From assembly GCA_017612675.1 (NCBI GenBank), contig JAGAFI010000032.1:1-40362 (forward strand): a DNA stretch of 40,362 bases. The letters are read 5' to 3'. Origin of the DNA: Bacteroidales bacterium (lineage in GTDB: Bacteria; Bacteroidota; Bacteroidia; Bacteroidales; UBA932). Both the position numbers and the translations under genes were made by a program. The notes under the pieces are model-generated. The model ran no database searches and was not told the origin of the DNA. It saw nothing but the letters and a program-made list of their open reading frames with translations. Shown here piece by piece: positions 11,077-39,715 of the stretch. Each line of letters begins with the position of its first letter. Within the stretch, counting starts at the first letter, position 1.

Positions 11077-12336
11077 TTATAGGCCGAAACGCCGGCGGAG
11101 TTCCGGGACGGCATCCAGCCGCTCCCAGCCGAAGAACCAGACTTCGCGGGTGCTGCCGTCAGCAAAACGGACAGGGGCCGTATAAGGCTTGCGTCCCATG
11201 TGCCCGTAGGAAGCCGTCGGCAGGAAAATCGGGTTCTTCAAGCCGAAACGCTCCACGATGGCCGCGGGGCGCAGGTCGAAGCAGTCGCGCACCACATCGG
11301 CGATGGCTGCGTCCGGGGTTCCGGCGCCGGGGAGATGGGCGCTGCCGTAACTGTTGACATAGACGCTGACCGGTTCGGCGACCCCGATGGCATAGGCCAG
11401 CTGTACCAGGCATTCATCCGCGACGCCTGCGGCCACGAGGTTCTTGGCGATGTGGCGGGCGGCATACGCGGCGCTGCGGTCCACTTTGGAGGCGTCTTTG
11501 CCGGAAAACGCCCCGCCGCCGTGCGCCCCTTTTCCGCCGTAGGTATCGACGATGATTTTGCGTCCCGTCAGGCCCGTGTCGCCCGCGGGGCCGCCAATCA
11601 CGAACTTGCCGGTGGGGTTCACGTGCAGGATGAAGTTCCCGTCGAAGAGGGCCGCCGTCTGCGGGGGCAGGGAAGCGACCATGCGCGGGATGAGAATCTC
11701 CCGGACATCCCGTTCAATCCGTGCGTGCATGCGTGCATCGCTGTCGAAGGAATCGTGCTGCGTGCTCAAGACAATGGTGTGTATCCGCAGGGGGATGTTC
11801 CCTTCCGCATATTCGACGGTGAACTGGGATTTGGCGTCAGGCCGCAGGTACGGCATCAGCTCCGGGTGGTTGTGGCGGATGTCGGACAGCGTCAGCAGGA
11901 GCCGGTGCGACAGGGACAGCGGCAGCGGCATATAGTCTTCCGTGTCCCGGCAGGCATAGCCGAACATCATCCCCTGGTCGCCGGCACCCTGTGCCATCGC
12001 CTCTTCCCGCACGACGCCCCGGCGGATGTCGGAACTCTGCTCGTGGATGGTGGAGATGATGCCGCAGGAAGCGGCATCGAACAGGTACTCCGAGCGGGTG
12101 TAGCCGATGCGGGCGATGACGCCGCGCACCACTTCCTGGATGTCCACATACGAATGTTCGGAGCGGACTTCCCCGCCCACGATGACCAGCCCCGACGTGC
12201 AAAAGGTTTCGCACGCGACTTTCGATTCCGGGTCCTGGCGGAGGAATTCATCGAGGATGGCGTCTGAAATCTGGTCGGCAACCTTGTCCGGGTGCCCTTC
12301 GGAGACGGACTCCGAGGTAAAAAGATAGGTTTTCAT
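11077..12336 (-). CDS. metK: S-adenosylmethionine synthetase
   Basis: FTSESVSEGHPDK, GAGDQG, GRKIIVDTYGG and GGGAFSGKD motifs; start ATG 12336 (MKTYLF). Confidence 0.97.
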   Translation of the reverse strand: MKTYLFTSESVSEGHPDKVADQISDAILDEFLRQDPESKVACETFCTSGLVIVGGEVRSEHSYVDIQEVVRGVIARIGYTRSEYLFDAASCGIISTIHEQSSDIRRGVVREEAMAQGAGDQGMMFGYACRDTEDYMPLPLSLSHRLLLTLSDIRHNHPELMPYLRPDAKSQFTVEYAEGNIPLRIHTIVLSTQHDSFDSDARMHARIERDVREILIPRMVASLPPQTAALFDGNFILHVNPTGKFVIGGPAGDTGLTGRKIIVDTYGGKGAHGGGAFSGKDASKVDRSAAYAARHIAKNLVAAGVADECLVQLAYAIGVAEPVSVYVNSYGSAHLPGAGTPDAAIADVVRDCFDLRPAAIVERFGLKNPIFLPTASYGHMGRKPYTAPVRFADGSTREVWFFGWERLDAVPELRRRFGL

Positions 12337-12386
12337 TTTTAGCATTTTTTTTCGCGAGGTTGCAAGCATCCAAATCTCTCCTCGCA
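12337..12386 (-). promoter_or_regulatory. SAM-II class riboswitch in the metK leader
   Basis: Minus strand reads UGCGAGG-AGAGAUUUG-GAUGCUUGCAA-CCUCGCG-AAAAAAAAU-GCUAAAA-AUG: P1 stem GCGAGG/CCUCGC, a loop with GAUUU and UUGC, and a 3' GCUAAA pseudoknot strand. These are SAM-II hallmarks, directly upstream of metK. Confidence 0.85.
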
Positions 12387-12398
12387 GGTTTGCAGGGG

Positions 12399-12429
12399 CA
12401 AAGATAAACCAAATTGTGCGTTTTCCAAA
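12399..12429 (-). promoter_or_regulatory. Bacteroidetes primary-sigma promoter for metK
   Basis: Minus strand TTTG (12429-12426), 19-nt spacer, TATCTTTG (12406-12399), just upstream of the riboswitch. Confidence 0.8.
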
Positions 12430-12521
12430 CACCTGCCCGTAATATGGGCCCTTTTCCCGACGGGCGTTTTCCGACAGCCGGTTTTTCGCGCCCGCTTCGT
12501 ATCAGATAGTTCTCGTTTTAT

Positions 12522-15928: not shown

Positions 15929-17938
15929 ATGAAAACCAGAATTTTCTTTGTCACACTTGTTTCCTGCGTGTTGCTTGCCTTCGGATGCACCACCAAGGAA
16001 GCCACTTCCCTCCCGAACATCCAGTTGTCCAAGACTTTCCTGGCCATTCCGGCTGGCGGCGGATCGGTCGATGTGACCGTTACGGCGGCAGAGGCGTGGG
16101 CGTTTGCCCAGATTTGCAACATCGGAAAGGATGACAACGGCAGCGCCATCTATGCGGAATTCCCGGCCTGGCTGTCCTGCAACGCTGTTTCCGGCGACGC
16201 AGGGGAAACTGTCCTCACGTTCTCTGCAGCGGCCTGCGACTTCGGCCGTGAGCAGGAACTCCAGATTGTCGCCGGTTCCAACACGCAGTACCTGCAGATA
16301 CGTCAGGGCACCATGTCGGCTGTCAAGGCGACCTGTCAGGAAGTGATTGACGGGGTGGACGGCAAGACTTTCACCGTGAAAGGTGTCTGTACGGCCATCG
16401 CCAACACCAACTATGGCAACTGGTATCTCAAGGACGACACCGGTGAAATCTATATCTACGGAACCGTCGATGCCAACGGCAGTTACAACTGGGCGAGCTT
16501 CAACATCGAAGTGGGCGACGTCGTGGAGGTACAGGGTCCCAAGACCACCTACGGCACGACCGTCGAACTGGTGGACGTGTCGGTCCTCCAGGTGACCAAG
16601 TCCCTGCTGAAGCTGGATACGGATGCGGTGGAATTCCCCAAGGAAGGCGGCGAATTTGTCGTGAAAGCCACGTACAAGGGTGAGGGGGTGTTCCTGACCC
16701 AAGGGGAAGACTGGGTGCTGATTCGGGATATGCAGTGCAAGAAGGGGGTTCCCTCCAAGATTGAAACCAACCCGGCGGATACGGCCTGGATTTCTTTCCG
16801 CGTGCTGCCCAATGTGGATGATGCCCGCAAAGGCGTTTTGACGCTGCGTTCCGCTTCCGGTTCGCAAGCCTCCGAGGTGAGCATTTCCGTTGCCCAGGGC
16901 TCTGGCCTGGCCGCGTATGCGCTTCCGTACGAGGAGACTTTCCTCGGCAGCAAGGGCGCGTGGGAAACGCAGGATATCATTCCTGTCGAAGGCGTGGCCA
17001 GCATCTGGACCAACAGCAAGGATTACGGTATGGTGGCGAAGGCGACCAAGGCCGTCGCATCGCAGGCCGAACTGATAGGCCCGAACATCGACCTCGCCTC
17101 CGTGAGCTCCGCCGTGCTGACCTTTGAGCATGTGCAGCGTTATGCCGCTTCTCCGGCCGGGGAACTGAAACTCTTCGCGAGTACCGACAACGGAACCTCC
17201 TGGACGGAGTTGCAGATTCCGGCCTATTCTTCCGGGAAAAACTGGACGTATGTTTCTTCCGGAAACATCAGTCTCAAGCGTTTTGCCGGCAAGCTGGTCA
17301 TGTTGAAATTCCAGTACAATTCCAGTCCGGATGCCTATGCCACATGGGAAATCAAGAACCTGAAGGTGGTGGAAGGCGACATCGCCCCGGCCAATATCGC
17401 GGAACTGAACAACAGTGCGACCGCGGATGCGGAAGTCTGGAGCGGAACGTTCACGGATGCCGTGGTGACCTATGTGAATGGGAAGAATGCGTTTATTGAA
17501 GATGCTACCGGCGGTATCCAGCTTTATATGCAGGACCACGGCCTGGTGGCGGGCCAGACCATCAATGGTACGGTCTCCGGCAAGGTGACGCTGTACAATG
17601 GGTTTGCCGAACTGACGAGCGTGGACGTGGAGGCTGCTACGGTGACCGACGGAGAAGCGCCCGTCCCGACCGCGATGACGCTTCCTGCCTTGATGGCTGC
17701 ATACCTGCGCTATCAGAACTGCTGGGTGGAACTGTCGGACGTGACTTTCGATACGCCCTTGACGCTCTCCAACCGCAACGGTGTCATCTCTTCGAACGGT
17801 GTGACCGTAGCCGCATACGCCCAGATCAAGAATAAGATTGAGATGGCCGGCACCGGTTCCCTCATCTGCATTCCTTCCCGGTACAACGCAAATCTCCAGG
17901 TAGGCGTGTGGGAAAATGACCACTTCATCACGAAGTAA
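15929..17938 (+). CDS. Surface lipoprotein with BACON-like, OB-fold and jelly-roll (DUF5017-like) domains
   Basis: Lipobox LLAFGC; BACON-like W...SGDAG..R..L; OB-fold YGNWYLKDDTGEIYIYG..VGDVVEVQG; LIGPNIDL..LTFEH..WEIKNLKV; second OB-like AFIEDATGGIQLY. Confidence 0.75.
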   Translation: MKTRIFFVTLVSCVLLAFGCTTKEATSLPNIQLSKTFLAIPAGGGSVDVTVTAAEAWAFAQICNIGKDDNGSAIYAEFPAWLSCNAVSGDAGETVLTFSAAACDFGREQELQIVAGSNTQYLQIRQGTMSAVKATCQEVIDGVDGKTFTVKGVCTAIANTNYGNWYLKDDTGEIYIYGTVDANGSYNWASFNIEVGDVVEVQGPKTTYGTTVELVDVSVLQVTKSLLKLDTDAVEFPKEGGEFVVKATYKGEGVFLTQGEDWVLIRDMQCKKGVPSKIETNPADTAWISFRVLPNVDDARKGVLTLRSASGSQASEVSISVAQGSGLAAYALPYEETFLGSKGAWETQDIIPVEGVASIWTNSKDYGMVAKATKAVASQAELIGPNIDLASVSSAVLTFEHVQRYAASPAGELKLFASTDNGTSWTELQIPAYSSGKNWTYVSSGNISLKRFAGKLVMLKFQYNSSPDAYATWEIKNLKVVEGDIAPANIAELNNSATADAEVWSGTFTDAVVTYVNGKNAFIEDATGGIQLYMQDHGLVAGQTINGTVSGKVTLYNGFAELTSVDVEAATVTDGEAPVPTAMTLPALMAAYLRYQNCWVELSDVTFDTPLTLSNRNGVISSNGVTVAAYAQIKNKIEMAGTGSLICIPSRYNANLQVGVWENDHFITK

Positions 17939-17971
17939 GCGGTTTCCCTGGAAACAAGCATCTTCCTTTTG

Positions 17972-18002
17972 AAGGTCGGCGTAAGCCGGCCTTTTTTGTT
18001 TC
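17972..18002 (+). terminator. Intrinsic terminator
   Basis: AAGGTCGGC-GTAA-GCCGGCCTT stem with GNRA loop, followed by TTTTGTTTC, 33 nt after the stop at 17938. Confidence 0.85.
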
Positions 18003-18024
18003 TTGGGGAAAAACTTTATCTTTG
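17995..18024 (+). promoter_or_regulatory. Bacteroidetes promoter preceding a long non-coding structured region
   Basis: TTTG (17995-17998), 18-nt spacer, TATCTTTG (18017-18024); no credible ORF follows for about 420 nt. Confidence 0.7.
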
Positions 18025-18028
18025 CGAA

Positions 18029-18391
18029 GCCGATTTTCGGCGCACATATTGCGAAAGTGTTTTCGCGTCCCGACTGAAAATCTGGACAATTTTCAAAAGG
18101 AAAAGGGAGCGCGTGAGACACTGCGCCTGTCTATGATATGGCTTGATTGGGGGGCATCCCTCCGGTCTCTTCATAGATGACGGTGTGGTTGTTTCCGGTT
18201 TCTTGCTTCCTTTGCGTTTGTCCAGAACGTTCAGTCGAAAGAGCGGAGGCTCCACACTTTCTTCATTCACCCGTTAACAAAGGGCTCAGGAGCCGCCCTG
18301 CCCGTATTTCGGCCTCTGGCCAGCTGCCAGCAGGAGACTTTTGCGTTTCTTCGAACCTGCGGTGTACGAATGGGTGAGCCTGCTTGTTTTT
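18029..18391 (+). ncRNA. Candidate large structured ncRNA or long structured 5' leader (family not recognised)
   Basis: Two short 5' hairpins (18029-41, 18050-67), a ~167-nt rod (18071-18237) of stacked helices with about ten G-U pairs that form only on the + strand, and a multibranch domain closed by 18266-75/18369-78, followed by a U-run. Preceded by a promoter motif. Confidence 0.6.
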
Positions 18392-18410
18392 AATAACCGA
18401 AATAATTTCG

Positions 18411-18418
18411 TATCTTTG
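18411..18418 (+). promoter_or_regulatory. Putative -7 promoter element for the downstream nuclease operon
   Basis: TATCTTTG 31 nt upstream of ATG 18450 in AT-rich context; no clean -33 TTTG at canonical spacing. Confidence 0.55.
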
Positions 18419-18449
18419 GAAAGTATAGCATCAACTAACAACCATTGAT

Positions 18450-20642
18450 ATGAAACTGAAAAGTATTCTCCTTGCCGCAGCTGCCTGTCTTTTCGTGGCG
18501 GCGTGCGACCAGAAACCCGACGAGCCCGGGCTTCCTTATCTGACCATCGACGAGCAGAGCGACGCTGTGCTTCTCGAGTTCGATTCCGCCCAGGCGGAGA
18601 AGACGGTCATCGTCAAATCCAACCGGGAATGGCAGTTCGAAGCGCTTGCCGACGATGCCGATTGGCTGGACATCGCTCCCGCCGGCAAGCAGGCCGCCGC
18701 TCCCAAGGGCGTGGGCGTGACCGTGACCGTGACGAAGAACACCGGTGCGGACCGCAAGTATGTGGTGAATTGCTCCAACGGCACCAAGACCGTAGCCCTC
18801 ACCGTCAAGCAGAAAGGCGAGCAGGGCCCCAGCGGCGAGATTCTCGAAGAGAGCTTCGAGGAGTCCCTCGGCGAGTTTACCATCGACGACGTGAACAAAC
18901 CTTCCGGCGTGAATTTCATCTGGGCGTATGCCAGCAATTTCAAGTGTGCCAAGGCGAGCGCTTATGTCAACAAGACCAACTACGAGTCCGAGAGCTGGCT
19001 GGTGTCCCCGCTGGTGGATCTGACCGGCGAGACGGCGGCGTACCTGAACTTCGACCACGCCGGCAACGCGTACAACGAGAAAGGCAAGGCCAACACCGTC
19101 TGGGTGCGTGAAGGCACGGACGGCACGTGGACGAAGCTCTCCGTCCCGCAGGACCACCTGTACGATGCCGCATTTACCTTCAAGAACTCCGGCGACATCG
19201 ACCTCAAGGACTATCTGGGCAAGAAAATCCAGATTGGTTTCAAATATACGTCCACCAGTTCCAAGGCCGGTACGTGGGAAGTGAAGAATGTCAAGATTAC
19301 CCGCACCGCCGCGCCGGTCGTCGGACCGACGGTCTGCACCACCATTGCGGAGGTCAAGGCCCTCGGCGCCGGTGCCAACATGCAGCTCCAGAACGCGCTG
19401 GCCGTGCAGGTGAACGCCACGGGCGCCCTGCTCAGCGACGGCACGGACTATATCTATGTGTATGCCGGCGAAACCCCCGCCTTCAAGCTCGGGGACAAGC
19501 TCAACATCACCGCCGCCATCGCGGAATATCCCGCCAACAGCGGCCGCCTGCAGCTGAACCCGAAGGGCGTGGAAGTGCTTTCTTCCGGCAACGCCGTCTC
19601 CTATCCCACCCCGAAGGACATCACGGCGGAATTTGACACCTATGCGCCCGCCGGCATCGAATATGTGAAAGTGCGCGGCACCCTCGTGGTCTCCGGAAAT
19701 TACTACAACCTGAACGTGGACGGCGCCACCGCCAAGACCGGCAGCCTCGTTTCCCCGGCGGACGACCTGTCCACCTTCAACAACATGCTGTGCGAGGTGA
19801 CCGGCTTCTATGTTTACAGCACCGGTTCCGGCAGCAAGTACACGAATATCGCCTATACGGAAATCAAGCCCGCCGGCGGTTTCCTGAGCGCTTCTCCTTC
19901 GACCATCAAGGTGCCGGCGGAAGCGACGACGGCTTCTTTCAACATCAAGTCCGACCAGAGTTGGAACATCGTTTCTTCCACGATGGGCATCGAGATTTCG
20001 CCGATCAGCGGCGACGGGGATGCGGAAGTGTCCCTGAAGTTCCCGTCCAATGCGGCGTTCACCGAAATCAAGACGACGTTCACGATTTCCTGCATCAGCA
20101 GCGAAAGCGTGCCGGCGGTCACGGTGACCCTCGTCCAGGCGGCCATGCCGGATCCCAACGTGACGGTGCTGGAACTGACCAATGCGGAAATCTGCGCTTC
20201 GCTGGAAGCGGCTGTCGCCGGCGGTGCCAACGGATACACCACGGTGGACTTCACCAGCGCTTCCGGTACGTGGTCCGGCCTGGTCAACGCCCAGACCAAT
20301 GCGGACAAGACGCTCAAGACGACCTATGTGCAGATGCGGAACAAGAACGGTTCCCACCTGCTCTCCCCGAAATTCTCCTCTGCGGTCGAGAAAATCGAAT
20401 TCTCCCTCACGGAGGGCATGAATGAAGGCCAGAAGCGTATCCTCTTTGCCATGCCCGCGAATACCGACCTGCCTGCGAGCGCGGCTTATACCGAGGCCCT
20501 TTACAAGAACGAATACGGCTCCGTCGAGACCTCTGGTCCCGGCACGTACACGCTTTCGTTTGCGGCGGACACGGATACGTTCATGCTGATTGTCAAAGGC
20601 GGCGCCACCTACATCGACAACATCAAGGTGTATCTGAAGTAG
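18450..20642 (+). CDS. Surface lipoprotein with BACON, jelly-roll (DUF5017/choice-of-anchor-like) and OB-fold domains
   Basis: Lipobox FVAAC; BACON VKSNREW..W..R; SWLVSPLVDL..LNFDH..IGFKYTS..WEVKNVKI; OB-like TTIAEV..LSDGTDYIYVY..LGDKL; second BACON IKSDQSW. Confidence 0.75.
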   Translation: MKLKSILLAAAACLFVAACDQKPDEPGLPYLTIDEQSDAVLLEFDSAQAEKTVIVKSNREWQFEALADDADWLDIAPAGKQAAAPKGVGVTVTVTKNTGADRKYVVNCSNGTKTVALTVKQKGEQGPSGEILEESFEESLGEFTIDDVNKPSGVNFIWAYASNFKCAKASAYVNKTNYESESWLVSPLVDLTGETAAYLNFDHAGNAYNEKGKANTVWVREGTDGTWTKLSVPQDHLYDAAFTFKNSGDIDLKDYLGKKIQIGFKYTSTSSKAGTWEVKNVKITRTAAPVVGPTVCTTIAEVKALGAGANMQLQNALAVQVNATGALLSDGTDYIYVYAGETPAFKLGDKLNITAAIAEYPANSGRLQLNPKGVEVLSSGNAVSYPTPKDITAEFDTYAPAGIEYVKVRGTLVVSGNYYNLNVDGATAKTGSLVSPADDLSTFNNMLCEVTGFYVYSTGSGSKYTNIAYTEIKPAGGFLSASPSTIKVPAEATTASFNIKSDQSWNIVSSTMGIEISPISGDGDAEVSLKFPSNAAFTEIKTTFTISCISSESVPAVTVTLVQAAMPDPNVTVLELTNAEICASLEAAVAGGANGYTTVDFTSASGTWSGLVNAQTNADKTLKTTYVQMRNKNGSHLLSPKFSSAVEKIEFSLTEGMNEGQKRILFAMPANTDLPASAAYTEALYKNEYGSVETSGPGTYTLSFAADTDTFMLIVKGGATYIDNIKVYLK

Positions 20643-20654
20643 CGCCACTGCCGT

Positions 20655-21803
20655 ATGCAAGCGTTCCGTTCACACCGGATTCTGCTTCCCCTTCTGCTGC
20701 TGACGGGGCTCTTCTCCTGCGAGAAGGCCCCGCAGCCGGATGCGGGGGAGGCTGTGCTGGAAGTCGCGTTGCGGCGCAGCGAGGGGGACAAAGCGGCAGA
20801 TGCCGTGTTCGTCAGCGTGACGGCGACGGGGAACTGGACGCTTTCCCTTGCGTTTGAGGAAGGGGATGGATGGGCGTCCCTGTCGGCCCGGGAGGGAACG
20901 GGGAACAAGAGCAACATCATCCTCGATTATGCGGCCAATGCCACCGGGGAAGACCGCGGCGTGACCATCTGTGCGAAAAGCGGGCTCCTCGAAGCTTCGG
21001 CCTATTTCGTCCAGCGGGGCCGGGCCGCCGACCCGCAGCGGCCGGATGCCGTGGCCGGATGGCTGGAACTGCCGGGTACGTATGACGACGACGGGCTTTC
21101 TTTCTACCACCATGAAATGACCCTCGGCACGGTCAAGACCCGGAATTATTCGTATTATTGGGACAAGCAGGCCCTGGTCGCGCACTGGGTGGCCTATCCG
21201 CTCAACAGCTGGACCATTTCCACCGGCACGCGCACCAATGCCTGGGGCACGCTTGACCCGAAACTCCCGGAATCCCAGCAGCCCATCCTGTACAAGGGTT
21301 TCAGCGGGTATGACCGGGGGCATCAGCTTCCCTCTGCAGACCGCCTGAGCCTGGCGGCCAACGTGCAGACGTTCTACGGGACCAACATTACCCCGCAGCT
21401 GGGGTCCCTGAACCAGAAAATCTGGGCGACGCTGGAGGGGAACGTCCGGGACTGGTGCCGCAAGTTCGACACCCTGTACGTCGTGACGGGCTGTTGCGTC
21501 GAAAAGAGCACGAAGGTGGCTTACGACAATGCCGGAAAGGCCGTCAAAGTGCCCACGGCGTATTACAAGGCCCTGCTCGGCTATTGCCGGAACGGCACTT
21601 TCGGCATCACCCAATCTACAGGCGGTTATTCGGCCATCGGCTTTTATTTCCCCCACGAGGCCTACAACGGCAGCGTGATGGACAAGGCGATGACCGTGGA
21701 CGAACTGGAAAAACTCGTACAAGTCGATTTCTTCGTCAACCTGCCCGCCGACATTGAAACCATCGTAGAATCCACCCGCGACAACGCCTGGTGGAAATTA
21801 TAA
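20655..21803 (+). CDS. Lipoprotein DNA/RNA non-specific endonuclease (NucA/EndoG beta-beta-alpha-Me family) with N-terminal BACON domain
   Basis: Lipobox LFSC; WLELP, RNYS, WVAYPL, catalytic YDRGH (DRGH at 21312-21323), TF..TNITPQ..LNQ.IW..LE and VPTAYYKALL. Confidence 0.92.
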   Translation: MQAFRSHRILLPLLLLTGLFSCEKAPQPDAGEAVLEVALRRSEGDKAADAVFVSVTATGNWTLSLAFEEGDGWASLSAREGTGNKSNIILDYAANATGEDRGVTICAKSGLLEASAYFVQRGRAADPQRPDAVAGWLELPGTYDDDGLSFYHHEMTLGTVKTRNYSYYWDKQALVAHWVAYPLNSWTISTGTRTNAWGTLDPKLPESQQPILYKGFSGYDRGHQLPSADRLSLAANVQTFYGTNITPQLGSLNQKIWATLEGNVRDWCRKFDTLYVVTGCCVEKSTKVAYDNAGKAVKVPTAYYKALLGYCRNGTFGITQSTGGYSAIGFYFPHEAYNGSVMDKAMTVDELEKLVQVDFFVNLPADIETIVESTRDNAWWKL

Positions 21804-21807
21804 CCAC

Positions 21808-22884
21808 ATGTTTATGAAAAAGACCGTCCTTTTGATTGTAGCGGTTTTCGTCTGGGTTGCCGCCGTTGCCCAGGGCAACGGCATGCGCAGCCATGTCATC
21901 GGCTTCTACAATCTTGAAAACCTGTTCGACACCGTCGATGACCCCGCCCACAATGACGAGGAATACCTTCCCGAAGGGGGAAACAAGTGGACCGAGGTGA
22001 AGTACGCGAAGAAAATCCGGAACATGGCCAAGGTCATCCGGGCCATCCGCAACGACAACGGGGTATATCACTCCGTGCTGGGCGTCTGTGAAATCGAAAA
22101 CCGGCGCGTGCTGGAAGATTTGGTGAGCGACCCGCAGATTGCGGACGCCAATTTCCAGATTGTCCACTATGACGGCCCGGACCGGCGCGGCGTGGACGTG
22201 GGGCTGCTGTACCGCCCCGGCAGGTTTACCTTGCTGGACAGCGAATCCATCCCGTTCAAGTTCGAAGGCACGAAAGTGGCCATCACGCTGGATGAAAAGG
22301 CGCAGGAGAATTTCCGCACCCGTGACATCCTGATGGTACACGGGCTGATTGAAGGAGAGCATTTCGCTTTCTACGTGACCCACCTGCCTTCCCGTGTCGG
22401 CGGCAAGGGCGGCGACCTCCGCTGTCTGGGCGCGGAAATCATCTACAAGCATTCCCGCGAAATGGAAGCCCGCTATCCGGGCATTAAAATCGTGGTGATG
22501 GGAGACATGAACGACAACCCCACCGACGACAGCCAGACCGTCTGGCTGCATGGCCGGGAGACCATCGACGAGATGGAGCCCGCCGATTTCTTCAACCCGT
22601 TCATCCGGATGCTCAAGGACGGTTACGGCTCCCTTGCCTACCAGGGGGAATGGAACATCTATGACATCCTGCAAGTGAACTACAACCTGGCGAAGGCACC
22701 CCAGGGGGGATTCAAGATTCGTCCCATTGTCCGGAAGAAGTATTACGGGCGCATTTTCCACAAGCCCTTTATGGTGCAGCAGCGCGGCCAGTACAAAGGC
22801 CAGCCCTTCCGGACGTTCTCGGGAGGCGCCTTCATCGGCGGCTTCTCGGACCACTTTCCGACCTATATCGTGATCAGCAAATGA
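21808..22884 (+). CDS. Secreted endonuclease/exonuclease/phosphatase (EEP, DNase I-like) protein
   Basis: Signal peptide; FYNLENLFD, GVCEIEN, D.RGVDV, HLPSR, MGDMND and GFSDHFP catalytic motifs. Start 21808 or 21814. Confidence 0.9.
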   Translation: MFMKKTVLLIVAVFVWVAAVAQGNGMRSHVIGFYNLENLFDTVDDPAHNDEEYLPEGGNKWTEVKYAKKIRNMAKVIRAIRNDNGVYHSVLGVCEIENRRVLEDLVSDPQIADANFQIVHYDGPDRRGVDVGLLYRPGRFTLLDSESIPFKFEGTKVAITLDEKAQENFRTRDILMVHGLIEGEHFAFYVTHLPSRVGGKGGDLRCLGAEIIYKHSREMEARYPGIKIVVMGDMNDNPTDDSQTVWLHGRETIDEMEPADFFNPFIRMLKDGYGSLAYQGEWNIYDILQVNYNLAKAPQGGFKIRPIVRKKYYGRIFHKPFMVQQRGQYKGQPFRTFSGGAFIGGFSDHFPTYIVISK

Positions 22885-25826
22885 TACCTGCCATGAAAAA
22901 ACTTATTCTTGTATGCAATCTCCTGCTGCTGGCGCTCGCCGCGTCCGCACAGACGGGCGGCATCCGGGCCGGTGTGGTGGACCGCATGGGGCGGACGCCC
23001 ATCGCCGGCGCCTCCGTGGAGTTGTTCCGGGCCGGAGAGAAGATTGCCGGCCAGACGACCGGGGAGGACGGCAGTTTCCTCTTCGAGAAACTGGAAGACG
23101 GCCCTTATACCCTGGAAGTCAAAAACCCGGAATTCAACGATGCCATCCTGCACGTCAACGTGGAGAAGGGAACCATCCGGGACCTGGTCTGCGTGACCAT
23201 GACCCTGCGGAATACGATGGAAGAACCCGATCCGGTCATGTTCGTGGATTTGGACATGACGGATGCCGGTTATTCCGATTCCCCGACCATCCTGTTCGGG
23301 GCGAATGATGTCTATAACAACATCGCCGGATACGGTTTCAGTTCCGTGCGTTTCAAGAACCGGGGCTACAATTCCGAGACCCAGGACGTGTATCTCGCCG
23401 GGGTCAAGATGAATGACGCGCTGACGGGTTACAGCCCGTTCTCCCTGTGGAGCGGCCTCAACGAGGCGATGCGGAGCAAGGAAAGCACCGTGGGGCTGGA
23501 GCCGGCGGATTATGGTGTCGGCGGCTACAACGGCACCACCAACATTGCGGCGCTGCCTTCGAGCGTGCGGCCTGGCTGGCGCTTCAGCGTCCTCACCAAT
23601 TCTGCCCTCTACCGCCTGCGCCTGATGACCAACTATGCCAGCGGCGTGCTGGACAACGGCTGGAGCTTTGCCGTGAACGCCAGCGCCCGGCTCGGCGGGA
23701 ATGACTGGATAAAGGGCGTGTATTACCGTTCTTTCGCCCTGTATGCCGGGGCGGAGAAGCAATTCGGGGATGAGCACCGCCTTGCTTTCTTCGCTTTTGC
23801 CACGCCCGGGGAGCGGGGTGCCCAGAATGCCTCCACCCAGGAAGTGTATGACCTGATGGGAGACAATATGTACAACTCCAACTGGGGCTACCAGAACGGA
23901 AAAGTGCGCAACTCCCGTGTCCGCAAGACTTTCGAACCGGTCGTCGGCCTGAAATATGAGTTTACGCCCTCCACCGATTTGAACGTGGCGGCCACCCTGT
24001 TGTGGCGCACCGGCTGGAACGGCTATACGGCCATCGATTTTTACGACGCGATGGACCCCCGTCCCGACTACTACCGCAACCTCCCGTCCTATTTCTATAT
24101 GGATGATTCCGACTACAACCGCGAGAATCCCGAAAAGGCGGCCTGGGCGACGGAAATGTGGAGCCAGCATATCCCGGCGTACTACAATTACCAGCACCTG
24201 AACTGGGACCGGCTGTACAACGTCAATTACAACAATGCGGACCGGCGCAGCAAGTATGCGCTGGAAGAACGCCATGTGGACCAGAACGACATCAACATGG
24301 CGCTTACCGCCAAATGGCGCATCAACGACCTGATTTCCCTTTCTGGCGGAATGACCGGCAAAATCAACCGGACGGAGAACTACAAGAAAATCGACGACCT
24401 GCTCGGCGGGCAGTATTACCTGAACGTGGACCAGTTCGCAGAACGGGACTTCGCTTCCAACGAGGCCTTCATCCAGAACGATTTGGATTATTTCTTCGCC
24501 AACGGCACCGCCGAAAAAATCCAGACGGGCGGGCGCTACGGCTATGATTATCTCGCGCAGGTGCGCAAACTGGGCGCCTGGGCAAGCGGACGTTTCCAGC
24601 TGGACAACTTTACCGTCACGGCGGCCATGACGGCCGGGTATGAGGCGATGTGGCGGGAAGGCCGCATGCGCAAGGGTCTGTTTGCGGGCCTGGACGACGA
24701 CGGCAATGAAATCTGGTACCAGGGGACCAAGCTGACCGCGTATGACGCCAAGGGGCGTGTCATTTCCTCGAAAGGCAAGTCCGAAGTCGCGCAGTTCTTC
24801 ACCTGTGCGTTCAAGGCCGGTGCCGAATATGCCTGGCGCGGCGGTCACCGCATCGCGGCCAATGTCGGCATCTTCAGCGATGCCCCGACCTTCAAGCAGG
24901 CGTTTATCTCCGCCCGTACCCGCAACACCCTTGTGGACGGGCTCAAGAACACGGAAACGGCTTCCGCCGACCTGACGTACCAGTTCACCCGTTCCGGCTA
25001 CAACGTGCGGTTGACCGGTTTCTATACCGGCATCTGGAACCAGACGGACGTCATCAGTTTCTACGACGACTCGCAGCAGAGTTTCACCAATTTCGCCATG
25101 ACGAACATTAACCAGCGCCACATGGGCATTGAACTGGGCGTGAAGGTGCCGCTGTTCGTGCAGGGGCTGTCCCTGAGCGGGGTGTTGAGTCTGGGCGAAT
25201 ACATCTATACGAGTACGCCTCACGTGGTGCAGACCATCGACAACAGTTCAGAGATTGTCCGGGACGAGGATGTGACCTACTGGCAGCGGACGCCGGTTTT
25301 CAAGAGCTATATCAACGAGAGCGGCCGCAAGGAATACGAGCGGGATCTGGACGGCAATTTCGTCGTGGACCACTACCAGAAGCATTATATTCCGTCCACG
25401 CCGCAGCTGGCTTCTCAAATCGCCCTCAACTACCGTACCCGCAGCTACTGGTTCTTCGAAATCAACGGGCAGTACATGCAGAACTCCTACCTGTCCATGA
25501 ATCCGCTCTACCGGACGGAATCGGCGAACAAGGGAAGCGAAAGCAACCCGGAAATCATCGAGTACATGACGGCGCAGGAGAAATTCGACCCGGCGTTCCT
25601 GCTCAATGCGAGCATGGGCAAGAGCTGGTACATCAAGCGCAAGTACAGCATCGGTTTTTCCATGGAAGTCAAGAACATCCTGAACAACCGTGACGTCAAG
25701 ACGGGCGGCTACGAACAGACCCGCCTCATCAGCAGCGACAAGAAAGACCGCTATTACAAGTTCTACCCCAAGTACTTCTACATGTGCGGCGCCAACTATA
25801 TGTTGAACATCTATTTCAGGTTCTAA
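22881..25826 (+). CDS. TonB-dependent-type outer-membrane beta-barrel receptor
   Basis: Signal peptide, N-terminal carboxypeptidase-regulatory-like domain, plug-like FKNRGYNS..WSGLN, YNSNWGYQNGK.RNSR, DPRPDYYRNLPSY and C-terminal YMLNIYFRF. Start 22881 (ATGA overlap) or 22893. Confidence 0.85.
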   Translation: MIPAMKKLILVCNLLLLALAASAQTGGIRAGVVDRMGRTPIAGASVELFRAGEKIAGQTTGEDGSFLFEKLEDGPYTLEVKNPEFNDAILHVNVEKGTIRDLVCVTMTLRNTMEEPDPVMFVDLDMTDAGYSDSPTILFGANDVYNNIAGYGFSSVRFKNRGYNSETQDVYLAGVKMNDALTGYSPFSLWSGLNEAMRSKESTVGLEPADYGVGGYNGTTNIAALPSSVRPGWRFSVLTNSALYRLRLMTNYASGVLDNGWSFAVNASARLGGNDWIKGVYYRSFALYAGAEKQFGDEHRLAFFAFATPGERGAQNASTQEVYDLMGDNMYNSNWGYQNGKVRNSRVRKTFEPVVGLKYEFTPSTDLNVAATLLWRTGWNGYTAIDFYDAMDPRPDYYRNLPSYFYMDDSDYNRENPEKAAWATEMWSQHIPAYYNYQHLNWDRLYNVNYNNADRRSKYALEERHVDQNDINMALTAKWRINDLISLSGGMTGKINRTENYKKIDDLLGGQYYLNVDQFAERDFASNEAFIQNDLDYFFANGTAEKIQTGGRYGYDYLAQVRKLGAWASGRFQLDNFTVTAAMTAGYEAMWREGRMRKGLFAGLDDDGNEIWYQGTKLTAYDAKGRVISSKGKSEVAQFFTCAFKAGAEYAWRGGHRIAANVGIFSDAPTFKQAFISARTRNTLVDGLKNTETASADLTYQFTRSGYNVRLTGFYTGIWNQTDVISFYDDSQQSFTNFAMTNINQRHMGIELGVKVPLFVQGLSLSGVLSLGEYIYTSTPHVVQTIDNSSEIVRDEDVTYWQRTPVFKSYINESGRKEYERDLDGNFVVDHYQKHYIPSTPQLASQIALNYRTRSYWFFEINGQYMQNSYLSMNPLYRTESANKGSESNPEIIEYMTAQEKFDPAFLLNASMGKSWYIKRKYSIGFSMEVKNILNNRDVKTGGYEQTRLISSDKKDRYYKFYPKYFYMCGANYMLNIYFRF

Positions 25827-25827: not shown

Positions 25828-26988
25828 ATGAAAAAGGTATTTTTCGCGGGATTATCCCTGCTTCTGCTGGCCGTGTCCTGCCAGTCCCTGAAAGAAGAAT
25901 TCGAACCCGTATTCACGGAGATTTATCCGTCGGCGGAAGCGTACCACCGCTATTCAGAGGCGGAAGCGCTTGCGCAGAGCGGTGCCGCGCGCGTCACGAG
26001 CATCCGGGATTTGGTCGCCCGCTACAACGGGGCATCCTTGAAAATCAACGACAACCTGCTTATCAGCGGCATCGTGTCCTCGACCGACCAGCCCGGCAAT
26101 TTCTACAAGAGTTTCTATATCCAGGACGAGACCGGCGGCATCGAAATCAAAATCGGCAAGAACGGCCTCTACAATGATTATCCGCGCGGCCTGCGTGTCT
26201 ATGTAAGCTGCAAGGGCCTGCAACTGGGGATGTACGGCGGCAAGAATGCCGACGTGGGTATGGTGCAGCTTGGTTTCGTGGACCCCACGGGCGAATACGA
26301 GACTTCCTACATCGAGAGTTCCCTGCTGGTCGATGACCACATCTGGCGGGGCGAGATGGAAGGGGCCGTGCAGCCCGCCGTCCTCGGCGCCAACGACCTG
26401 CCCGGCAGCACCGATACCCAGGCCTCCAACCGGAACGTCGGGCGGCTGGTGACCATCAAGGGCCTCGAATATGGCTGGTACGACACCCGCTACAAAGAGG
26501 ACAACGAAGTGTTCGCCCTGCTGTACCTGTCGCTGACGTCGGACAAGAAAGTCTCCTCCAACCGGCTCTTCATTTCCGATTCCAGCGCCAAGACCCATGT
26601 GACGACCTGGGCGATGTCCAAGACCAAGATGACCTCGCTGCTGCTCGCCGGCTATTGGGACGAGTTCTATATCGGCAACGGAAACGACTACAATTACGGC
26701 CAGGTGGGTGACTGGAAATACAAGGGCTTCCCGGACCGGAAGACCAAGCTGTACAGCTACCCCGGCGTGGACCGGCAGGCGGCATCCGTGAGCCATTATT
26801 TTTCCACCCCGGAGAAGGTGTGCGTGCAAATCCGCACCAGCGGCTATGCCAAGTTCAGCGATACGGAAATCAATCCGGCCATCCTGGCCAAGGAGAAGAC
26901 CATCGATGCGACGGGTATCCTGACGATGTATCAGGGGAAAATTCAGTTGAGTCTCAATTCGTTGGATGATATTGTCGTGAACAAGTGA
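25828..26988 (+). CDS. DUF5689-like OB-fold surface lipoprotein
   Basis: Lipobox LLAVSC; SIRDL, ISGIVSS.D..GNFYKSFYIQDETGGIEI, RTSGYAKF and GILTMY...QL motifs. Confidence 0.75.
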   Translation: MKKVFFAGLSLLLLAVSCQSLKEEFEPVFTEIYPSAEAYHRYSEAEALAQSGAARVTSIRDLVARYNGASLKINDNLLISGIVSSTDQPGNFYKSFYIQDETGGIEIKIGKNGLYNDYPRGLRVYVSCKGLQLGMYGGKNADVGMVQLGFVDPTGEYETSYIESSLLVDDHIWRGEMEGAVQPAVLGANDLPGSTDTQASNRNVGRLVTIKGLEYGWYDTRYKEDNEVFALLYLSLTSDKKVSSNRLFISDSSAKTHVTTWAMSKTKMTSLLLAGYWDEFYIGNGNDYNYGQVGDWKYKGFPDRKTKLYSYPGVDRQAASVSHYFSTPEKVCVQIRTSGYAKFSDTEINPAILAKEKTIDATGILTMYQGKIQLSLNSLDDIVVNK

Positions 26989-28976: not shown

Positions 28977-30008
28977 ATGAAGCGTTTCCTATGCTTATCC
29001 GGTGCGGTGTTGTTGCTTGCGCTGTCTTCCTCCGCCTGCCAGCAGGAGAAGCCGGCGCCGGAAAAACCCGCTCCGGTCCAGGCGTCATGTGTGGCGCCTC
29101 CCTTCCTGCAGGAGGGGGATAAAATCGCCATCATCACGCCATCCTATTCCATCAACAACTCCTATATCCAGACCTGTTGCCGTTACCTGCAGAGTTGGGG
29201 CTACCAGACCGTGTATGCCCCGCATGTGGGGGAGACATATCCTGCGACCAAGTCCTATCTGGCAGGCAGTCCGGAGCATCGGGCGGAAGATTTGCGCTGG
29301 GCGCTGGAAAACGATGACATCAAGGCCATCGTGTCCGCGAATGGCGGGTACGGCGCCATCCAGATTCTGGACCTCGTGCCCCTGTCCCTGTACCGGGAAC
29401 ACCCGAAATGGATGCTGGGCTTCAGTGATTTCACGAACCTGTTGTCCGCCAGCGCCGTGGCGGGCGTGATGAGCATCCATGGCCCGACGGCATACCGTTT
29501 CTCGACCTATTTCACCGGGAAGACGGAAACGGAAGTGATGCTGCGGAACATGTTGCGCGGGGATTTGCCGACCTATCACCTCACGCCCAACATCAACAAC
29601 ATCCCCGGGGATGCGGAGGGGATGCTCGTGGGCGGAAACCTCTATACGCTCTGCGCCCTGTGCGGCACCCCTTACGACGTGATGGACCTGAACGGCACCA
29701 TCCTGTTCCTGGAAGAGACGGATGAATCCATGGCCCGTATCGACGAAATGTTCCAGACCCTGATGAAACAGCGCAGGCTGGAAGGGGTCCGGGGCATTAT
29801 TTTCGGGGATTTCGTGTATTATGACAGCGATTTGGAGTTTCAGGATATCAAGGCGGTGTTTGCCCGCTATACGTCCCGGCTCGGCATTCCCGTATGCTTC
29901 GGTTACCGGGGCGGTCATTCGTCCGCAGGCAACAATCCCCTGATTATCGGTGCGAAGGTAAAACTCCATGTCGATGACGATGAAGTGACTATTGAATACC
30001 AGTTATGA
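28977..30008 (+). CDS. S66-family LD-carboxypeptidase lipoprotein, catalytic residues intact
   Basis: Lipobox SSAC; PPFLQEGDKIAI, GGYGA, GFSD (nucleophile Ser), HGP, GGNL, LFLEE (Glu) and GGH (His). Confidence 0.9.
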   Translation: MKRFLCLSGAVLLLALSSSACQQEKPAPEKPAPVQASCVAPPFLQEGDKIAIITPSYSINNSYIQTCCRYLQSWGYQTVYAPHVGETYPATKSYLAGSPEHRAEDLRWALENDDIKAIVSANGGYGAIQILDLVPLSLYREHPKWMLGFSDFTNLLSASAVAGVMSIHGPTAYRFSTYFTGKTETEVMLRNMLRGDLPTYHLTPNINNIPGDAEGMLVGGNLYTLCALCGTPYDVMDLNGTILFLEETDESMARIDEMFQTLMKQRRLEGVRGIIFGDFVYYDSDLEFQDIKAVFARYTSRLGIPVCFGYRGGHSSAGNNPLIIGAKVKLHVDDDEVTIEYQL

Positions 30009-31042
30009 TGAAACACGCCATTTTCCATATACTTGCCTGTGCTTTCGTCCTGACGGCCCTGTCCTGCGACAAGGACACGCCGCAGGCGGGGGAGGACTGT
30101 CCGCTGCCGGAGACATTCACAGCCCCTGCGTTCCTGCAGAAAGGGGACAAGGTCGCCGTCATCGTCCCGTCGTTCTGGATGAACGAAGCCAATGTGGAAC
30201 AGCTTTGCTCCGCTTTGGAGGAGTGGGAACTGGTGCCCGTGCTGGGGGCGCATGTCGGTGAGCGGGAGCCTTATACCAAAGCCGGGTATGCTTACTATGG
30301 CGGTTCGGCGGAAGCGCGGGCGGAAGATTTGCGCTGGGCGCTGGAAGACAAGTCCGTCAAGGCCATCATCGTGGCGACGGGCGGCTATGGCGCCATCCAT
30401 CTGCTCGATATGGTGCCGCAGGCGAGTTACCGGGCCGCGCCGAAGTGGCTGGTCGGTTTCGACGACGCGACGCTGTTGCTGTCCGCGTCGCTGCTGTCCG
30501 GTACGATGTGCCTGCACGGACCGATGGGCGCCGGCATCGCTGTCCGCCGCCTCGGGGAGTCCGAACAGGCGCTGCGCCGCCTGCTTTTCGGGGAAGTGCC
30601 CGAATATGTGCTGAAAGCCCATTCCTGCAACAGTCCGGGGCATGCGGAAGGCCGGCTGGTCGGCGGCGACATCTTCAAGCTGCGCGTCCTCGCCGGAACG
30701 ACGTACGACATCGGGCGGATGGACGATATCATCCTCTTCCTGGAAGGCAGTGGTGCGAGCTATTCCGAACTCAACTGCGCGTTCAATACCTTGATGCGTC
30801 AGGGCAGGATGGACCATGTCAAGGGCATCATCTTCGGCCGGGTTTCCGGCAATTCCGCCAACTTGAACAATTACAGCAGTGCGGAGCAGATGCTCAGTTC
30901 GGAGTACACGTCCAAATTCGGAATTCCGGTCTGCTTCGGATTCGAGGCCGGCGATGGCGTGGTGAACAACCCGCTGGTCTTCGGCGCCCAAGTGACGCTG
31001 GACGTTTCCGCCACCGGCGCATCCCTCCGTTTCCAGTTGTAA
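30005..31042 (+). CDS. S66-family paralogue lipoprotein, probably catalytically inactive
   Basis: Lipobox ALSC; colinear with the upstream paralogue, but GFSD is GFDD and the C-terminal GH is GD. Start overlaps the upstream stop (ATGATG). Confidence 0.85.
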   Translation: MMKHAIFHILACAFVLTALSCDKDTPQAGEDCPLPETFTAPAFLQKGDKVAVIVPSFWMNEANVEQLCSALEEWELVPVLGAHVGEREPYTKAGYAYYGGSAEARAEDLRWALEDKSVKAIIVATGGYGAIHLLDMVPQASYRAAPKWLVGFDDATLLLSASLLSGTMCLHGPMGAGIAVRRLGESEQALRRLLFGEVPEYVLKAHSCNSPGHAEGRLVGGDIFKLRVLAGTTYDIGRMDDIILFLEGSGASYSELNCAFNTLMRQGRMDHVKGIIFGRVSGNSANLNNYSSAEQMLSSEYTSKFGIPVCFGFEAGDGVVNNPLVFGAQVTLDVSATGASLRFQL

Positions 31043-32595: not shown

Positions 32596-35500
32596 TTACT
32601 TATAGGTGGCCAGTGAGAAGGTCTTGGGCCGCTTCATCGTTTCGGTATAGACCTTGCCCTCATCGTCCGTTACCTTGATATAGACGGTGGAGGAGGCACT
32701 GGATGCCGTGTAGGTAAACATATGCCAGTGGTTGGCCGGCTTGAAGGTCGGTGAGGACGTGGACTTGAAGCGCTGCGCCGTATAGGCAATCAGGTACAGC
32801 GGGTCATACGCCCAGGCGCGGGTACAGGCGACGAAGTTCTTGTTGTCTTCGCAGGCCTCCACCTTCCAGTTCGTGTTGTAGTCCCACACGTTGATGAGGA
32901 CCTGGTTGGCGCTGCTCGCCGTACCGAAGTCACCATATTCCTTCAGGTAGGACGCAAACTGGGTCTTGTAGGTCGTGATGCTGTAGTCCGCCGCCGCAAT
33001 CTTGATTTTGTTGCGGTCGTAGGTGCGGAACTGATAGGACGCCGCACGGCCCGTTCCCTTGTAGTACGAAGTGATGTTCGTTCCCTTGACGGTCATGACG
33101 CGATATCCGCCGGGAGCGCCGTCCTGGGTCACGTTGAGCGTGGAGTTGTAGTAGCCGCCCCACCACCAGGCTGCGCAGACGGCACCGCTGTTGCATTCCT
33201 TGATGTTGGCCTGCTTGAAGACGGTACGGTGCAGGTGCGTGTGGCCGGAGATGAAGCGCACGTTGGTGTGGTTGTTGAAGCACGCCGCAAATTCGTCCGC
33301 GTTATCCAGCTTGTTCTTGCCCGTGGTCGTCCAGACCGGGGAGTGCATCGTCACCACGATAGGCGTGTCTTTCGCCACGTACGCGAGGTCTTTCTTGATC
33401 CAGTCGAGGATGTAATCCACCACTTTCACGTTGTAGGAGCGGAAGCTGGCGTCGGTCTTGCTCGCCGTGGAGTTCGTACACTCGATGTTGTCCACGACCA
33501 TGTAGTGCACCTTGCCGATATTGAAGGAATAATAGTTCGGCGCGATGGTCGTCTTGTAGGCCTTGACCGTGTTCCAGTCGCCCGTCGCGTTCATGTCATG
33601 GTCATGGTTGCCGATGGTGTGGAAAATCTGCAGGCCGGAAATCGCTTTCACGTCCGCGAGGTAGCTGGAGAACGTGTAGCTGTTGGAATACCAGTACTGG
33701 TCCCAGGTCATGTCGCCGAGGGTCAGGGCGTAAATCTTCGCGGAGGAATTGTTCTTGATATAGTTGTTGATTTCCGTCGTGAAGGTCTTGAACTGGGTGC
33801 GGTCGTTGGTGCGGGCGGCGAGGTGGATGTCGCCGAATACCAGCATCGTGTGGTTGGTCTGGTCGCCGTCCGAGGTCAGGGAGAAGTCCAGTTGTTCCTG
33901 TACGGTGGCAGCGGATGCGGTCTTCTTGAAGAACTGCGGCAGCACGGTGGAAGAACTGCTGACCTTGTACCCGCTCGGGATGGAGATGAACACGTAGCCG
34001 TTTTTCTTCTCGGAACTCAGGGAGTACAGGCCGTTTGCATCCGTGGCGGTCACCTGGTAGCCGTCCGACACCACGACACCCTTGAGCGGGGTGGTTCCGC
34101 ATTTCACGTAGCCGTAGATGCTGGCTTTTGTGCCGTACAGGTCGCAGGAGAACTGCTTGCTTCCGCAGGCCGCCACGATTCCCGTCGTGATGTTGTTGTC
34201 CAGCAGGTAGTCGAAGAAACGGGCAGTGCAAAGCAGCTGGCGGTTCATGCTGCACATACCGGAGAGCTTCTTGCTCGTTGCGTCGAAATTATCGTTCGGG
34301 AAGCCGCAGTAATTGGCGAAACGCCCGTTGTTGGTTCCGTAGGTTACTTGCCTGGTAGCAAGGGAATTGAGCGTTTCCAGCGGCAGTTCGCTGGCTGCGA
34401 GTTCCGTGGATTCCAGCCAAGGGTCGGCAGCCATGGCGAAGCTGTCCGCTTCGGGGGCGGCATCTGCCATGCTCCCGCCATTGTACAGCGCTTGCAGCGA
34501 GCGGATGGCGACCGAGAACATCTGCGCCTTGGTCAGCGTTTTTCCGTTGAAGGTAATGGTCGTGGATTCCGGCACATAGTGGACGGCATTGAAAGTCTTG
34601 GACTGCGTCTTGACGGTTCCGATGGAACTGTTCCAGACATCCAGCACTTTGACGAACTGCTGGGCGAAAGCGCCGATGGAAGCGGTGGCCGGCACCGGAG
34701 TCGGCGTGTTGCCTTCGTCGTACAGGGCTGCATTCAACTGCATCGACGCGCAGGCCGTGGCGATGTTGTCGGATATCTCGTTGTCGATAAGGTACTTGTA
34801 GAAGCGGGCCATGATGAGCAGTGAGCGCTCGAGGCTGCAGACGCCCTTGTAGCCGCTTACCTGCGGGGTTCCCTTGGTGGAAACGTTTCCGGAGGCATCG
34901 GTGTACCAGCAGAAATTGCTCCACTTGTTGTTGGATTCCGTCCAGATGATTTCGCGGGAGGCGAAATTGAGCAGGAAGTTCAGGTCCACGGTCGTGTTCT
35001 GGAAAGCTCCGCCGTTGCCCTTGCCCTCGTTGTACGGGTTGTCGCCCCAGGCGTAGCCCCGGGCTGCCGGCAGCGCATCGGCCATCGTTCCGCCATTGTA
35101 CAGGGTATAGAGGCTCTGGATGGCGACGTCATAGGCGTTGGACTTGTTGTAGGACACCGCACCGAGTTTCATGCTCCAGTCAGCGGGAACATAATAGACG
35201 TCCGAGAACGTGTCGCCGCCGCCGACGGTAATGGTGCCGGTATTTGCCTTCCACGTGTCCAGGATGGAAATGAACTGGGAAGCGAAATCGGAAATGCACA
35301 CATGATCGGCTTCGACGCCTGCAAAGCTGACGTTCAGGCGGCACAGGCGGCCCTGCGCAAAGGTGATGCCGTTGCTGTTGGCCGTGATGGCTTTGGTATA
35401 GCTGTTCTTCGTGCCGATGACGCGGACGATGATGCTTTCACCTGCTTCCATTTTCACATCCCACGAGGTGAAATATACCTGTGCCGTACCGGCGGACAGG

Positions 35501-36174: not shown

Positions 36175-36196
36175 ATACTTACAAAATTATTGTTTT

Positions 36197-39637: not shown

Positions 39638-39700
39638 AATTTGGAATATGTTTGATGTCTTAAAAAGCTGTTTATCCTGCGAATTTAGCAAAAATCTCCA

Positions 39701-39708: not shown

Positions 39709-39715
39709 CATCATC

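Follow-up and report, generated by a model that had tools for sequence, protein, structure and literature searches.

To our knowledge, few cis-acting RNA switches have been described in gut Bacteroidales. In the pT181/pIP501, CopA-CopT, phage P4 CI and P1 c4 systems, complementary hairpin loops and strand exchange decide termination; in the P4 CI and P1 c4 type, direct-repeat targets flank the antisense segment and icd/kil-antirepressor genes lie downstream. The leader described below likewise has complementary loops and strands that exchange partners. A nearer parallel is cATT of the Bacillus subtilis plasmid pLS20, an experimentally tested zipper-type attenuator with the same three-part logic. 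According to the accessible sections of that report (PMC13401043), cATT, like the predicted folds of the leader, has an upstream hairpin, a central hairpin and a terminator, with complementarity between the outer two extending the central stem into an antiterminator rod. The antiterminator is favored by default in cATT and, by prediction, in the leader, and in both the most conserved bases lie at the 5′ arm of the upstream hairpin. FopS, as far as the available part of its description goes (PMC11697453), resembles the leader as a multi-copy Bacteroidales ncRNA associated with RbpB. However, FopS consists of a single-stranded seed and a terminator and acts in trans, whereas the leader is a 200-nt bistable element that would act in cis. 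According to the same paper, the FopS family was deposited in Rfam, in which the leader has no match; the fold also differs.

The window, the whole 40,362-nt stretch of DNA analyzed here, corresponds to contig C8 in a genome of 1.5 Mb and 65% completeness. An earlier note had read 18029-18391 as a structured RNA of about 360 nt with its own promoter, either a stand-alone ncRNA or a long regulatory leader, tied to nucleic-acid foraging. A search of the contigs reveals that this stretch holds two elements, termed parts A and B, and it is the second option, the long leader, that the evidence supports. The segment 18029-18300 belongs to a multi-copy family of Bacteroidales 5′ leader RNAs and, judging from sequence comparison and modeled folds, probably serves as a two-state, zipper-like transcription attenuator of the accessory gene behind it. 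Across the family, a promoter stands before the element, two exclusive sets of helices covary, a U-tract follows the second hairpin (H2) and a start codon comes ~57 nt later.

Part A (17991-18308; this and all features below are on the + strand unless stated) consists of the promoter, a 210-nt core and one further hairpin. A copy with 94% identity is located after recA on contig C89, where it stops just before a start codon. The duplicated unit shared with C89 begins at 17991, inside the U-tract of the intrinsic terminator (17971-18002) of the upstream lipoprotein gene (15929-17938), and identity breaks off at 18308. The earlier note had also seen that terminator, and its stem (17971-17994) and U tail are visible in the sequence, as is the Bacteroidetes housekeeping promoter behind it (17995-18024), with TTTG at 17995-98, an 18-nt spacer and TATCTTTG at 18017-24. 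The predicted start is ~18029, and both the motif and the family comparison support a structured RNA with its own promoter that starts near this position. Part B (18304-18385), ~80 nt long, is one module of a repeat with mosaic structure that occurs between genes and has its own copies elsewhere.

The folding signal divides in the same manner. The whole 363 nt has a z-score of -5.05, but the signal resides entirely in the core (18053-18262, z = -8.28), whereas the 3′ region taken for a multibranch domain (18266-18391) gives -0.14, no better than chance, and 18304-18391 gives +1.1. The stem thought to close this domain (18266-75/18369-78) does form in the predicted fold with a probability of 0.88, but it bridges the end of part A and the separate repeat and is absent from the C89 copy. 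The hairpins noted at 18029-41, 18051-66 and 18241-52 and the long rod are present in the sequence, although the GCGAAA/TTTCGC hairpin (18051-66) is local to some members and its segment pairs elsewhere family-wide. An AGGGC/GCCCT stem is found at 18281-99 as reported; the CTGGC/GCCAG and AGGAGAC stems also exist as motifs, but they belong to the part B repeat. Thus, 18029-18391 is a composite of a ~280-nt leader and a ~80-nt unrelated repeat, and for this reason a single stand-alone ncRNA of ~360 nt is rejected; the separate copies of the two parts, the end of identity at 18308 and the z-score of the 3′ domain rule it out.

A profile of part B has 14 matches in the genome including the one in the window, ~10 of which are credible; apart from the window, locations are on C131, C81, C175, C30, C19, C61, C116, C162, C45 and C46. 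These mosaic intergenic repeats occur in either orientation to genes, often near contig ends, and comprise a variable hairpin and T-run followed by a conserved TTTCTTCGAACC-type segment. No Y1/REP-associated transposase (PF01797) was found in the 65%-complete genome. Part B was also considered as an HDV-like ribozyme and rejected, as the required pairings are missing by eye.

The earlier note saw no signature of a known RNA, and database searches bear this out. ARAGORN detects no tRNA or tmRNA, and Rfam gives no match at gathering score on 18029-18391. On the core there is nothing with E ≤ 10, and the seven weak sub-gathering matches all lie at the upstream terminator or at 18355-18465. When Rfam 15, which includes riboswitches, 6S, c4, RAGATH and the Bacteroides/Bacteroidales motifs, was searched with 18029-18391, 20 distant loci and 20 further loci, only sub-gathering matches were returned, none to a plausible family; the element is thus an uncatalogued structured RNA. 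The reverse-strand open reading frame at 18016-18270 has no Pfam match. Literature searches found no description of the leader family, though the candidates of Fremin and Bhatt 2021 (PMC8040213) may include it.

A search of the window genome with model R1 yields eight full and one or two partial copies. By BLAST, matches like part A or part B occur in 13/36 genomes of the same genus and 0/24 genomes of other families. A two-motif pattern applied to GTDB genomes gave at least 120 loci (~840 stretches estimated), and all 120 listed loci also matched the profile. Members come from Alistipes, Rikenella, Cryptobacteroides, Muribaculaceae, Phocaeicola, Bacteroides, Prevotella and other Bacteroidales; nearly all named records are Bacteroidales, the outlying labels being one Eggerthellaceae, one Sphingobacterium and a few unlabelled bins. 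Sequence-only models detect the leader in 17/150 other genomes across the order, 2/150 across the phylum and 51/80 in the family of genome G448, and five genomes chosen for holding a match have 30, 9, 7, 6 and 2 copies. The leader family is a real, uncatalogued, widespread, multi-copy folded RNA of gut Bacteroidales, absent from Rfam.

For comparison, duplicates and sequences more than 90% identical were removed (147 to 137 to 132), leaving 132 non-redundant sequences with a mean identity of 58%, to which 26 model-found members were added for a total of 158. A partial hit (L191) and a viral pattern match without profile support (L041) were left out. For 108/158 members the search pattern had already fixed segments c and d as well as three T's, and the T-run is also part of the models, so that counts for the U-tract and for c·d pairing are biased upward. 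Certain members are unusual. Four variant leaders of G448 (L236, L237, L240, L241) have no segment a, and the rod state still leaves them a small local hairpin ahead of the U-tract, possibly with inverted logic; the genes behind them are, we presume, reductase-like. At L025 (G025:C34) and L247 (G450:C18), copies lie in tandem at a distance of 550-800 nt, with a short gene behind each in cassette-like fashion.

The core is built from four segments that swap partners, with a·b and c·d pairing in the hairpin state and b·c and a·d in the rod state. In the window copy, a variable 5′ hairpin and a conserved ACATAT-type segment come first (18029-18050). Segment a (GAAAGTGT, 18053-18060) partners with b (18118-23) in hairpin H1, which forms the 5′ half (18053-18123); in the rod, its partners are instead d and the first U's. 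H1 has an apical stem (18075-81/18089-95) and a 7-nt loop, CTGGACA (loop 1, 18082-88). The central variable hairpin P4 (18128-18179) is the predicted zipper seed. Hairpin H2, the 3′ half and predicted terminator (18183-18267), contains segment c (18183-90, degenerate in this copy), an apical stem (18215-18/18226-29), loop 2 (TGTCCAG, 18219-25) and segment d (18248-57), with the U-tract at 18258-67. The alternative rod (18053-18261, z = -8.28) is the predicted antiterminator and is made up of a·d, P1 (18071-78/18230-37), P2 (18082-88/18219-25), P3, b·c and P4. Beyond the core, hairpin H3 (18281-18299) presents in its loop segment e (GGAGCC, 18289-94), which is complementary to the 5′ part of d.

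Both folds covary across the family, which answers the question of structural conservation in the affirmative. Among the 132 sequences, the top covarying columns belong to rod helices P1 and P2, followed by a pair of a different helix. In a 59-sequence alignment, the hairpin state has 87.6% of its cells paired and 25/33 pairs with changes on both sides, and the rod state 81.1% and 33/39; for either state the observed values were reached in 0/500 shuffles, with slid controls 39-55% paired. The weaker helices, P3 and the lower stem of H1, are 45-69% paired and affected by register shifts. In the 50 members recovered independently of the fixed pattern, one letter varies in concert across segments a, b, c and d (T/A/T/A in 26, C/G/C/G in 15, mixed in 9). 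Changes are again joint on a tree from which the tested positions had been masked: loop position 5 takes 43 and 47 steps, 47 joint, and the c/d position 4, 4 and 5.

The two 7-nt loops are complementary, with at least 6/7 pairs in 150/158 members and a mean of 6.54 versus 5.04 when permuted. The conserved bases beside P2 are the apical stems of H1 and H2, which can pair with each other (at least 3/4 pairs) in only 1/158; as they cannot pair mutually, they are features of the hairpin state. Some of the two-state picture is a consequence of the rod by itself, because any sequence that nearly complements a hairpin will form one too. When the halves are folded alone, H1 (a·b in 138/158) and H2 (c·d in 158/158) form with their loops exposed, whereas whole cores fold into the rod in 154/158, with a·d in 140/158 and c·d in only 4. 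The rod is more stable than the hairpin state by 11.7 kcal/mol on average, and the + strand outfolds the - strand in 150/158 members. The distance from b to c ranges from 12 to 86 nt, the central part being 12-16 nt in the smallest members.

These properties bear on the comparison with cATT. As in that system, the central stem seeds the antiterminator: P4 is extended by b·c, and the equilibrium snapshots display outward zipping. The differences from the available part of the cATT description (PMC13401043) are several. H1 is strong, with a mean of -17.6 kcal/mol for the 5′ half as opposed to -6.4 for cATT SL-2, and it is complementary to H2 along its whole length, including the 7-nt loops. The central hairpin may be reduced to a minimum, and there is an extra contact between H3/e and d. 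The two states of cATT lie close in energy, whereas the leader has a gap of ~12 kcal/mol (20.4 in the window copy). Finally, cATT precedes conAn1 on Gram-positive plasmids, whereas the leader is multi-copy in Bacteroidales chromosomes before unrelated genes; in the searchable text of the cATT paper, the string 'Bacteroid-' has no match. Because of its strong upstream hairpin, its distant state energies and its other host and gene context, the leader is not filed as a cATT member; by analogy it appears to work like cATT while being set apart as a new attenuator variant by structure, energy, host and gene context. The antisense-controlled attenuators and kissing complexes differ in another way. 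Both partners of the leader lie in one transcript, there is no conserved antisense promoter (the reverse promoter motif has no positional peak near d) and no Rfam hit, and a and d are complementary rather than direct repeats. Segment a pairs with d, unlike the P4 CI/P1 c4 arrangement, and no icd/kil-antirepressor genes were found among the 101 downstream proteins scanned.

A Bacteroidetes promoter motif lies upstream of 130/145 members. A start codon follows d by 35-115 nt in 130/149 (median 57 nt; 35/110 on the control side), and at least seven T's occupy the 9 nt after d in 131/158, a T-run partly fixed by the search pattern. H2 is a long, irregular hairpin that a simple terminator scan does not report. 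Segment e is in a hairpin loop in 69/132 members (17% in controls), covaries with the 5′ part of d (score 11.99, against a permuted mean of 10.89 and maximum of 11.17) and ends a median of 23 nt before the ATG. This arrangement would also suit control of translation or mRNA stability, in which rod or hairpins would decide whether d pairs with the H3 loop and thereby the access to the start region or the protection of the 5′ end. We regard this as unlikely, as the conserved U-tract directly follows c·d, the short RNAs of B. thetaiotaomicron end there by the published 3′-end calls discussed next, and e lies farther from the ATG than a Shine-Dalgarno site would.

Members of the family are transcribed in B. 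thetaiotaomicron. In the accessible dRNA-seq supplements of Ryan et al. 2020 (PMC7366714), BTnc166 (210 nt), BTnc169 (235 nt) and BTnc262 (319 nt) appear as separate entries among the intergenic sRNA candidates. All three show the family segments, as assigned by eye, and are expressed from start site to U-tract, members starting 5-6 nt after TTTG. By our count on the pipeline calls, their 3′ ends fall 8, 7 and 12 nt after d, so that c·d and the U-tract are accompanied by published ends 7-12 nt after d, even though the terminator scan passes over H2. According to the same supplements, BT_2997 has its primary start site in common with BTnc166, and BT_3039 with BTnc169, the UTRs being 254 and 278 nt, and a small local hairpin is listed as the terminator of BTnc166. 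A fourth locus (5436382-5436620) shows the 5′ half of the family, and a divergent look-alike (2954790-2955035) ends ~19 nt after d. One antisense start site, at 3849120, is recorded beside BTnc169 in the available PMC10994844 supplements. A full-text literature search for the three names returned no papers, and for none of them did we find a described family, structure or switch.

These short RNAs could themselves be the product, with a released rod of ~210-320 nt acting in trans or as a sponge for a protein such as RbpB and the gene behind served by leaky read-through. The detection of the RNAs, the presence of up to 30 copies per genome and RbpB CLIP peaks overlapping BTnc166 and BTnc262 in the available PMC11697453 supplement would fit this explanation. 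We nonetheless judge it improbable: RbpB is a global binder and BTnc169 does not appear in that table, the strict start-codon spacing and the covarying H3/e beyond the 3′ end fit a cis role, and P1, P3 and P4 vary freely in sequence, which leaves few conserved single-stranded bases.

The downstream proteins (101, automatic choice of reading frame, first 330 residues) have no common theme. No Pfam match was obtained for 65/101, the others being surface and defence proteins of various kinds, with domains that include BACON, BspA-type LRR, fimbrillin, Fib_succ_major, CsgG, glycosyltransferase, REase-ARP, ResIII and caspase. This absence of a shared pathway bears on whether the leader is a ligand-sensing riboswitch of a new class, with conserved internal loops as the aptamer and c·d as the expression platform. 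Its leader position, its terminator/antiterminator pair and the conserved AAAT, ATTT, GG and CC bases are what such a riboswitch would have, but alternative pairing explains these bases, and together with the diversity of the genes this makes the riboswitch very unlikely. Among the first open reading frames, 9/130 encode a 35-50 residue peptide with a Y..P motif and an acidic, W-containing end that precedes fimbrillin-like lipoprotein genes; it lies just after the leader in L002, L004, L034, L050 and others.

Upstream genes are unrelated, with a mobile minority (integrases, PriCT-2 primases, IS1595, WYL). Near-identical leaders carry different genes from the ATG on, as in L016/L026, and in L001/L002 identity is confined to the leader (94% over 318 nt). 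We propose that the leader travels as a portable promoter-plus-switch module. The same copies raise the prospect of a DNA-level element, MITE-like or a cassette recombination site, in which the inverted repeat would be there for mobility or gene capture and the RNA fold would be a by-product. Several observations would suit it: copies that are almost identical and end sharply, exchange of cargo at the ATG, lower GC downstream in 66/90, one tandem pair, and copies next to a WYL gene or inside elements of the integrase-HTH-DUF6291-PriCT-2 type. Orientation and spacing are, however, not independent of genes, the order promoter-core-ATG being fixed; folding is G·U-rich and strand-asymmetric, copies are dispersed rather than arrayed, upstream genes are mostly unrelated and transcription proceeds from the element's own start site in the available published data (PMC7366714). 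We consider such an element highly improbable. The mobile contexts have a recurring composition. A small integrative element at L232 (MT836914.1, 395-8188; integrase, HTH_17, DUF6291 and PriCT-2 primase) has the leader before its cargo, and elements with a PriCT-2 primase at L040, L044 and L093 place it likewise; the cargo is REase-ARP in L232, L040 and L093. At L233, a WYL gene lies upstream and the cargo includes an Mrr-like nuclease.

For the attenuator, the following mechanism can be envisaged. The 5′ half would fold first, giving H1 (a·b). Should H1 persist, c would remain free and H2 would close (c·d) before the U-tract, stopping transcription. In the default route, P4 would zip outward through b·c and then P3, P2 and P1 into the rod, releasing a to pair with d and the first U's, which would hide d and part of the U-tract and permit read-through. 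The H3 loop (e) may then pair with the freed 5′ part of d, locking the read-through state beside the translation start. From the folding models we infer which of the two folds is ON. In the equilibrium snapshots, a·b is present in 143/158 members before c exists and b passes to c as c emerges, leaving a·b in 6/158 before loop 2 is made. As H1 is gone by then, the zipper would be the default route, and stopping would need H1 to outlast the exchange through kinetics or a bound factor; the ~12 kcal/mol advantage of the rod likewise means that stopping must be kinetic or assisted. Pairing between the loops of H1 and H2 is a second possible route into the rod, though it may be a minor one; loop-loop kissing as the main route was downgraded on the basis of the snapshots. 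The trigger is the weakest step of the attenuator model. Most likely it would be something that holds H1, either elongation speed and pausing or an RNA-binding protein such as RbpB.

The window copy departs from this scheme. It is one of 19/149 members without an ATG 35-115 nt after d, part B standing where family members have their start codon, and it has a degenerate c and six T's in the 9 nt after d. Its 5′ half is at -26.3 kcal/mol and the rod is favored by 20.4 kcal/mol. The gene behind it encodes a BACON-domain lipoprotein (18450-20642), the first of a ddb-like run in which two endonucleases (20655-21803 and 21808-22884), a likely TonB-dependent receptor (22881-25826) and a DUF5689 protein (25828-26988) follow. 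The gene layout is similar to that of the ddb DNA-utilisation loci (bioRxiv 10.1101/2025.03.18.642099, in the available part), a likeness that lies in layout and in the description of DdbC/DdbD. Model R1 finds the leader at 0/29 loci homologous to the downstream gene, 18 of which include 350 nt or more of sequence ahead of the start codon. The second TATCTTTG reported at 18411-18418 is indeed present, and similar promoter motifs lie close to the ATG in many homologues, so it is likely the gene's original short-UTR promoter. Because the leader is at none of these homologues and many have their own promoter near the ATG, the window leader looks like a recent arrival, half-orphaned, its own start codon displaced by part B; the repeat in place of the start codon, the weak predicted terminator and the gene's own promoter are signs of this. 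This copy is an atypical, probably uncoupled member of the family, and its contribution to the nuclease operon is probably no more than a second transcript that arises mostly by read-through. The suggested tie to DNA foraging is not supported, given the unrelated downstream genes of the family and the 0/29 homologous loci, and the link looks incidental.

Elsewhere in the window, a SAM-II (long loop) riboswitch scores above gathering at 12329-12389 (-), near the 5′ end of the SAM synthetase reading frame (11077-12432, -), and is ordinary. Phosphoglycerate kinase is spread over two reading frames (38384-39211 and 39308-40354, -; profile positions 1-106 and 121-379), which points either to an assembly frameshift or to a gene that is split. 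Tandem paralogue pairs comprise two LD-carboxypeptidases (S66) and two calcineurin-like phosphoesterases (28977-31042 and 32596-38371).

A broader, speculative extension, which we hold to be doubtful, is that the portable promoter-plus-switch cassette sits on newly acquired surface and anti-phage genes and unites up to 30 unrelated operons in one hidden RNA-level regulon. A single trans cue holding H1, be it an RNA chaperone such as RbpB, elongation rate or temperature, would flip all copies; the 7-nt loop pair would be a built-in antisense code, and the shared leader would anchor recombination for cargo swaps at the ATG.

The leader family is abundant (present in 51 of the 80 genomes sampled from one bacterial family, with 2-30 copies each in the five genomes checked) and stands before the variable surface and defence genes that distinguish strains. 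Because the model species B. thetaiotaomicron expresses BTnc166, BTnc169 and BTnc262, the genetic tools already available there allow immediate tests of the family. If the attenuator model is true, several listed sRNAs would be reclassified as attenuated leaders, zipper-type attenuation would extend beyond Gram-positive plasmids, and the leader would offer a tunable part for Bacteroides engineering.
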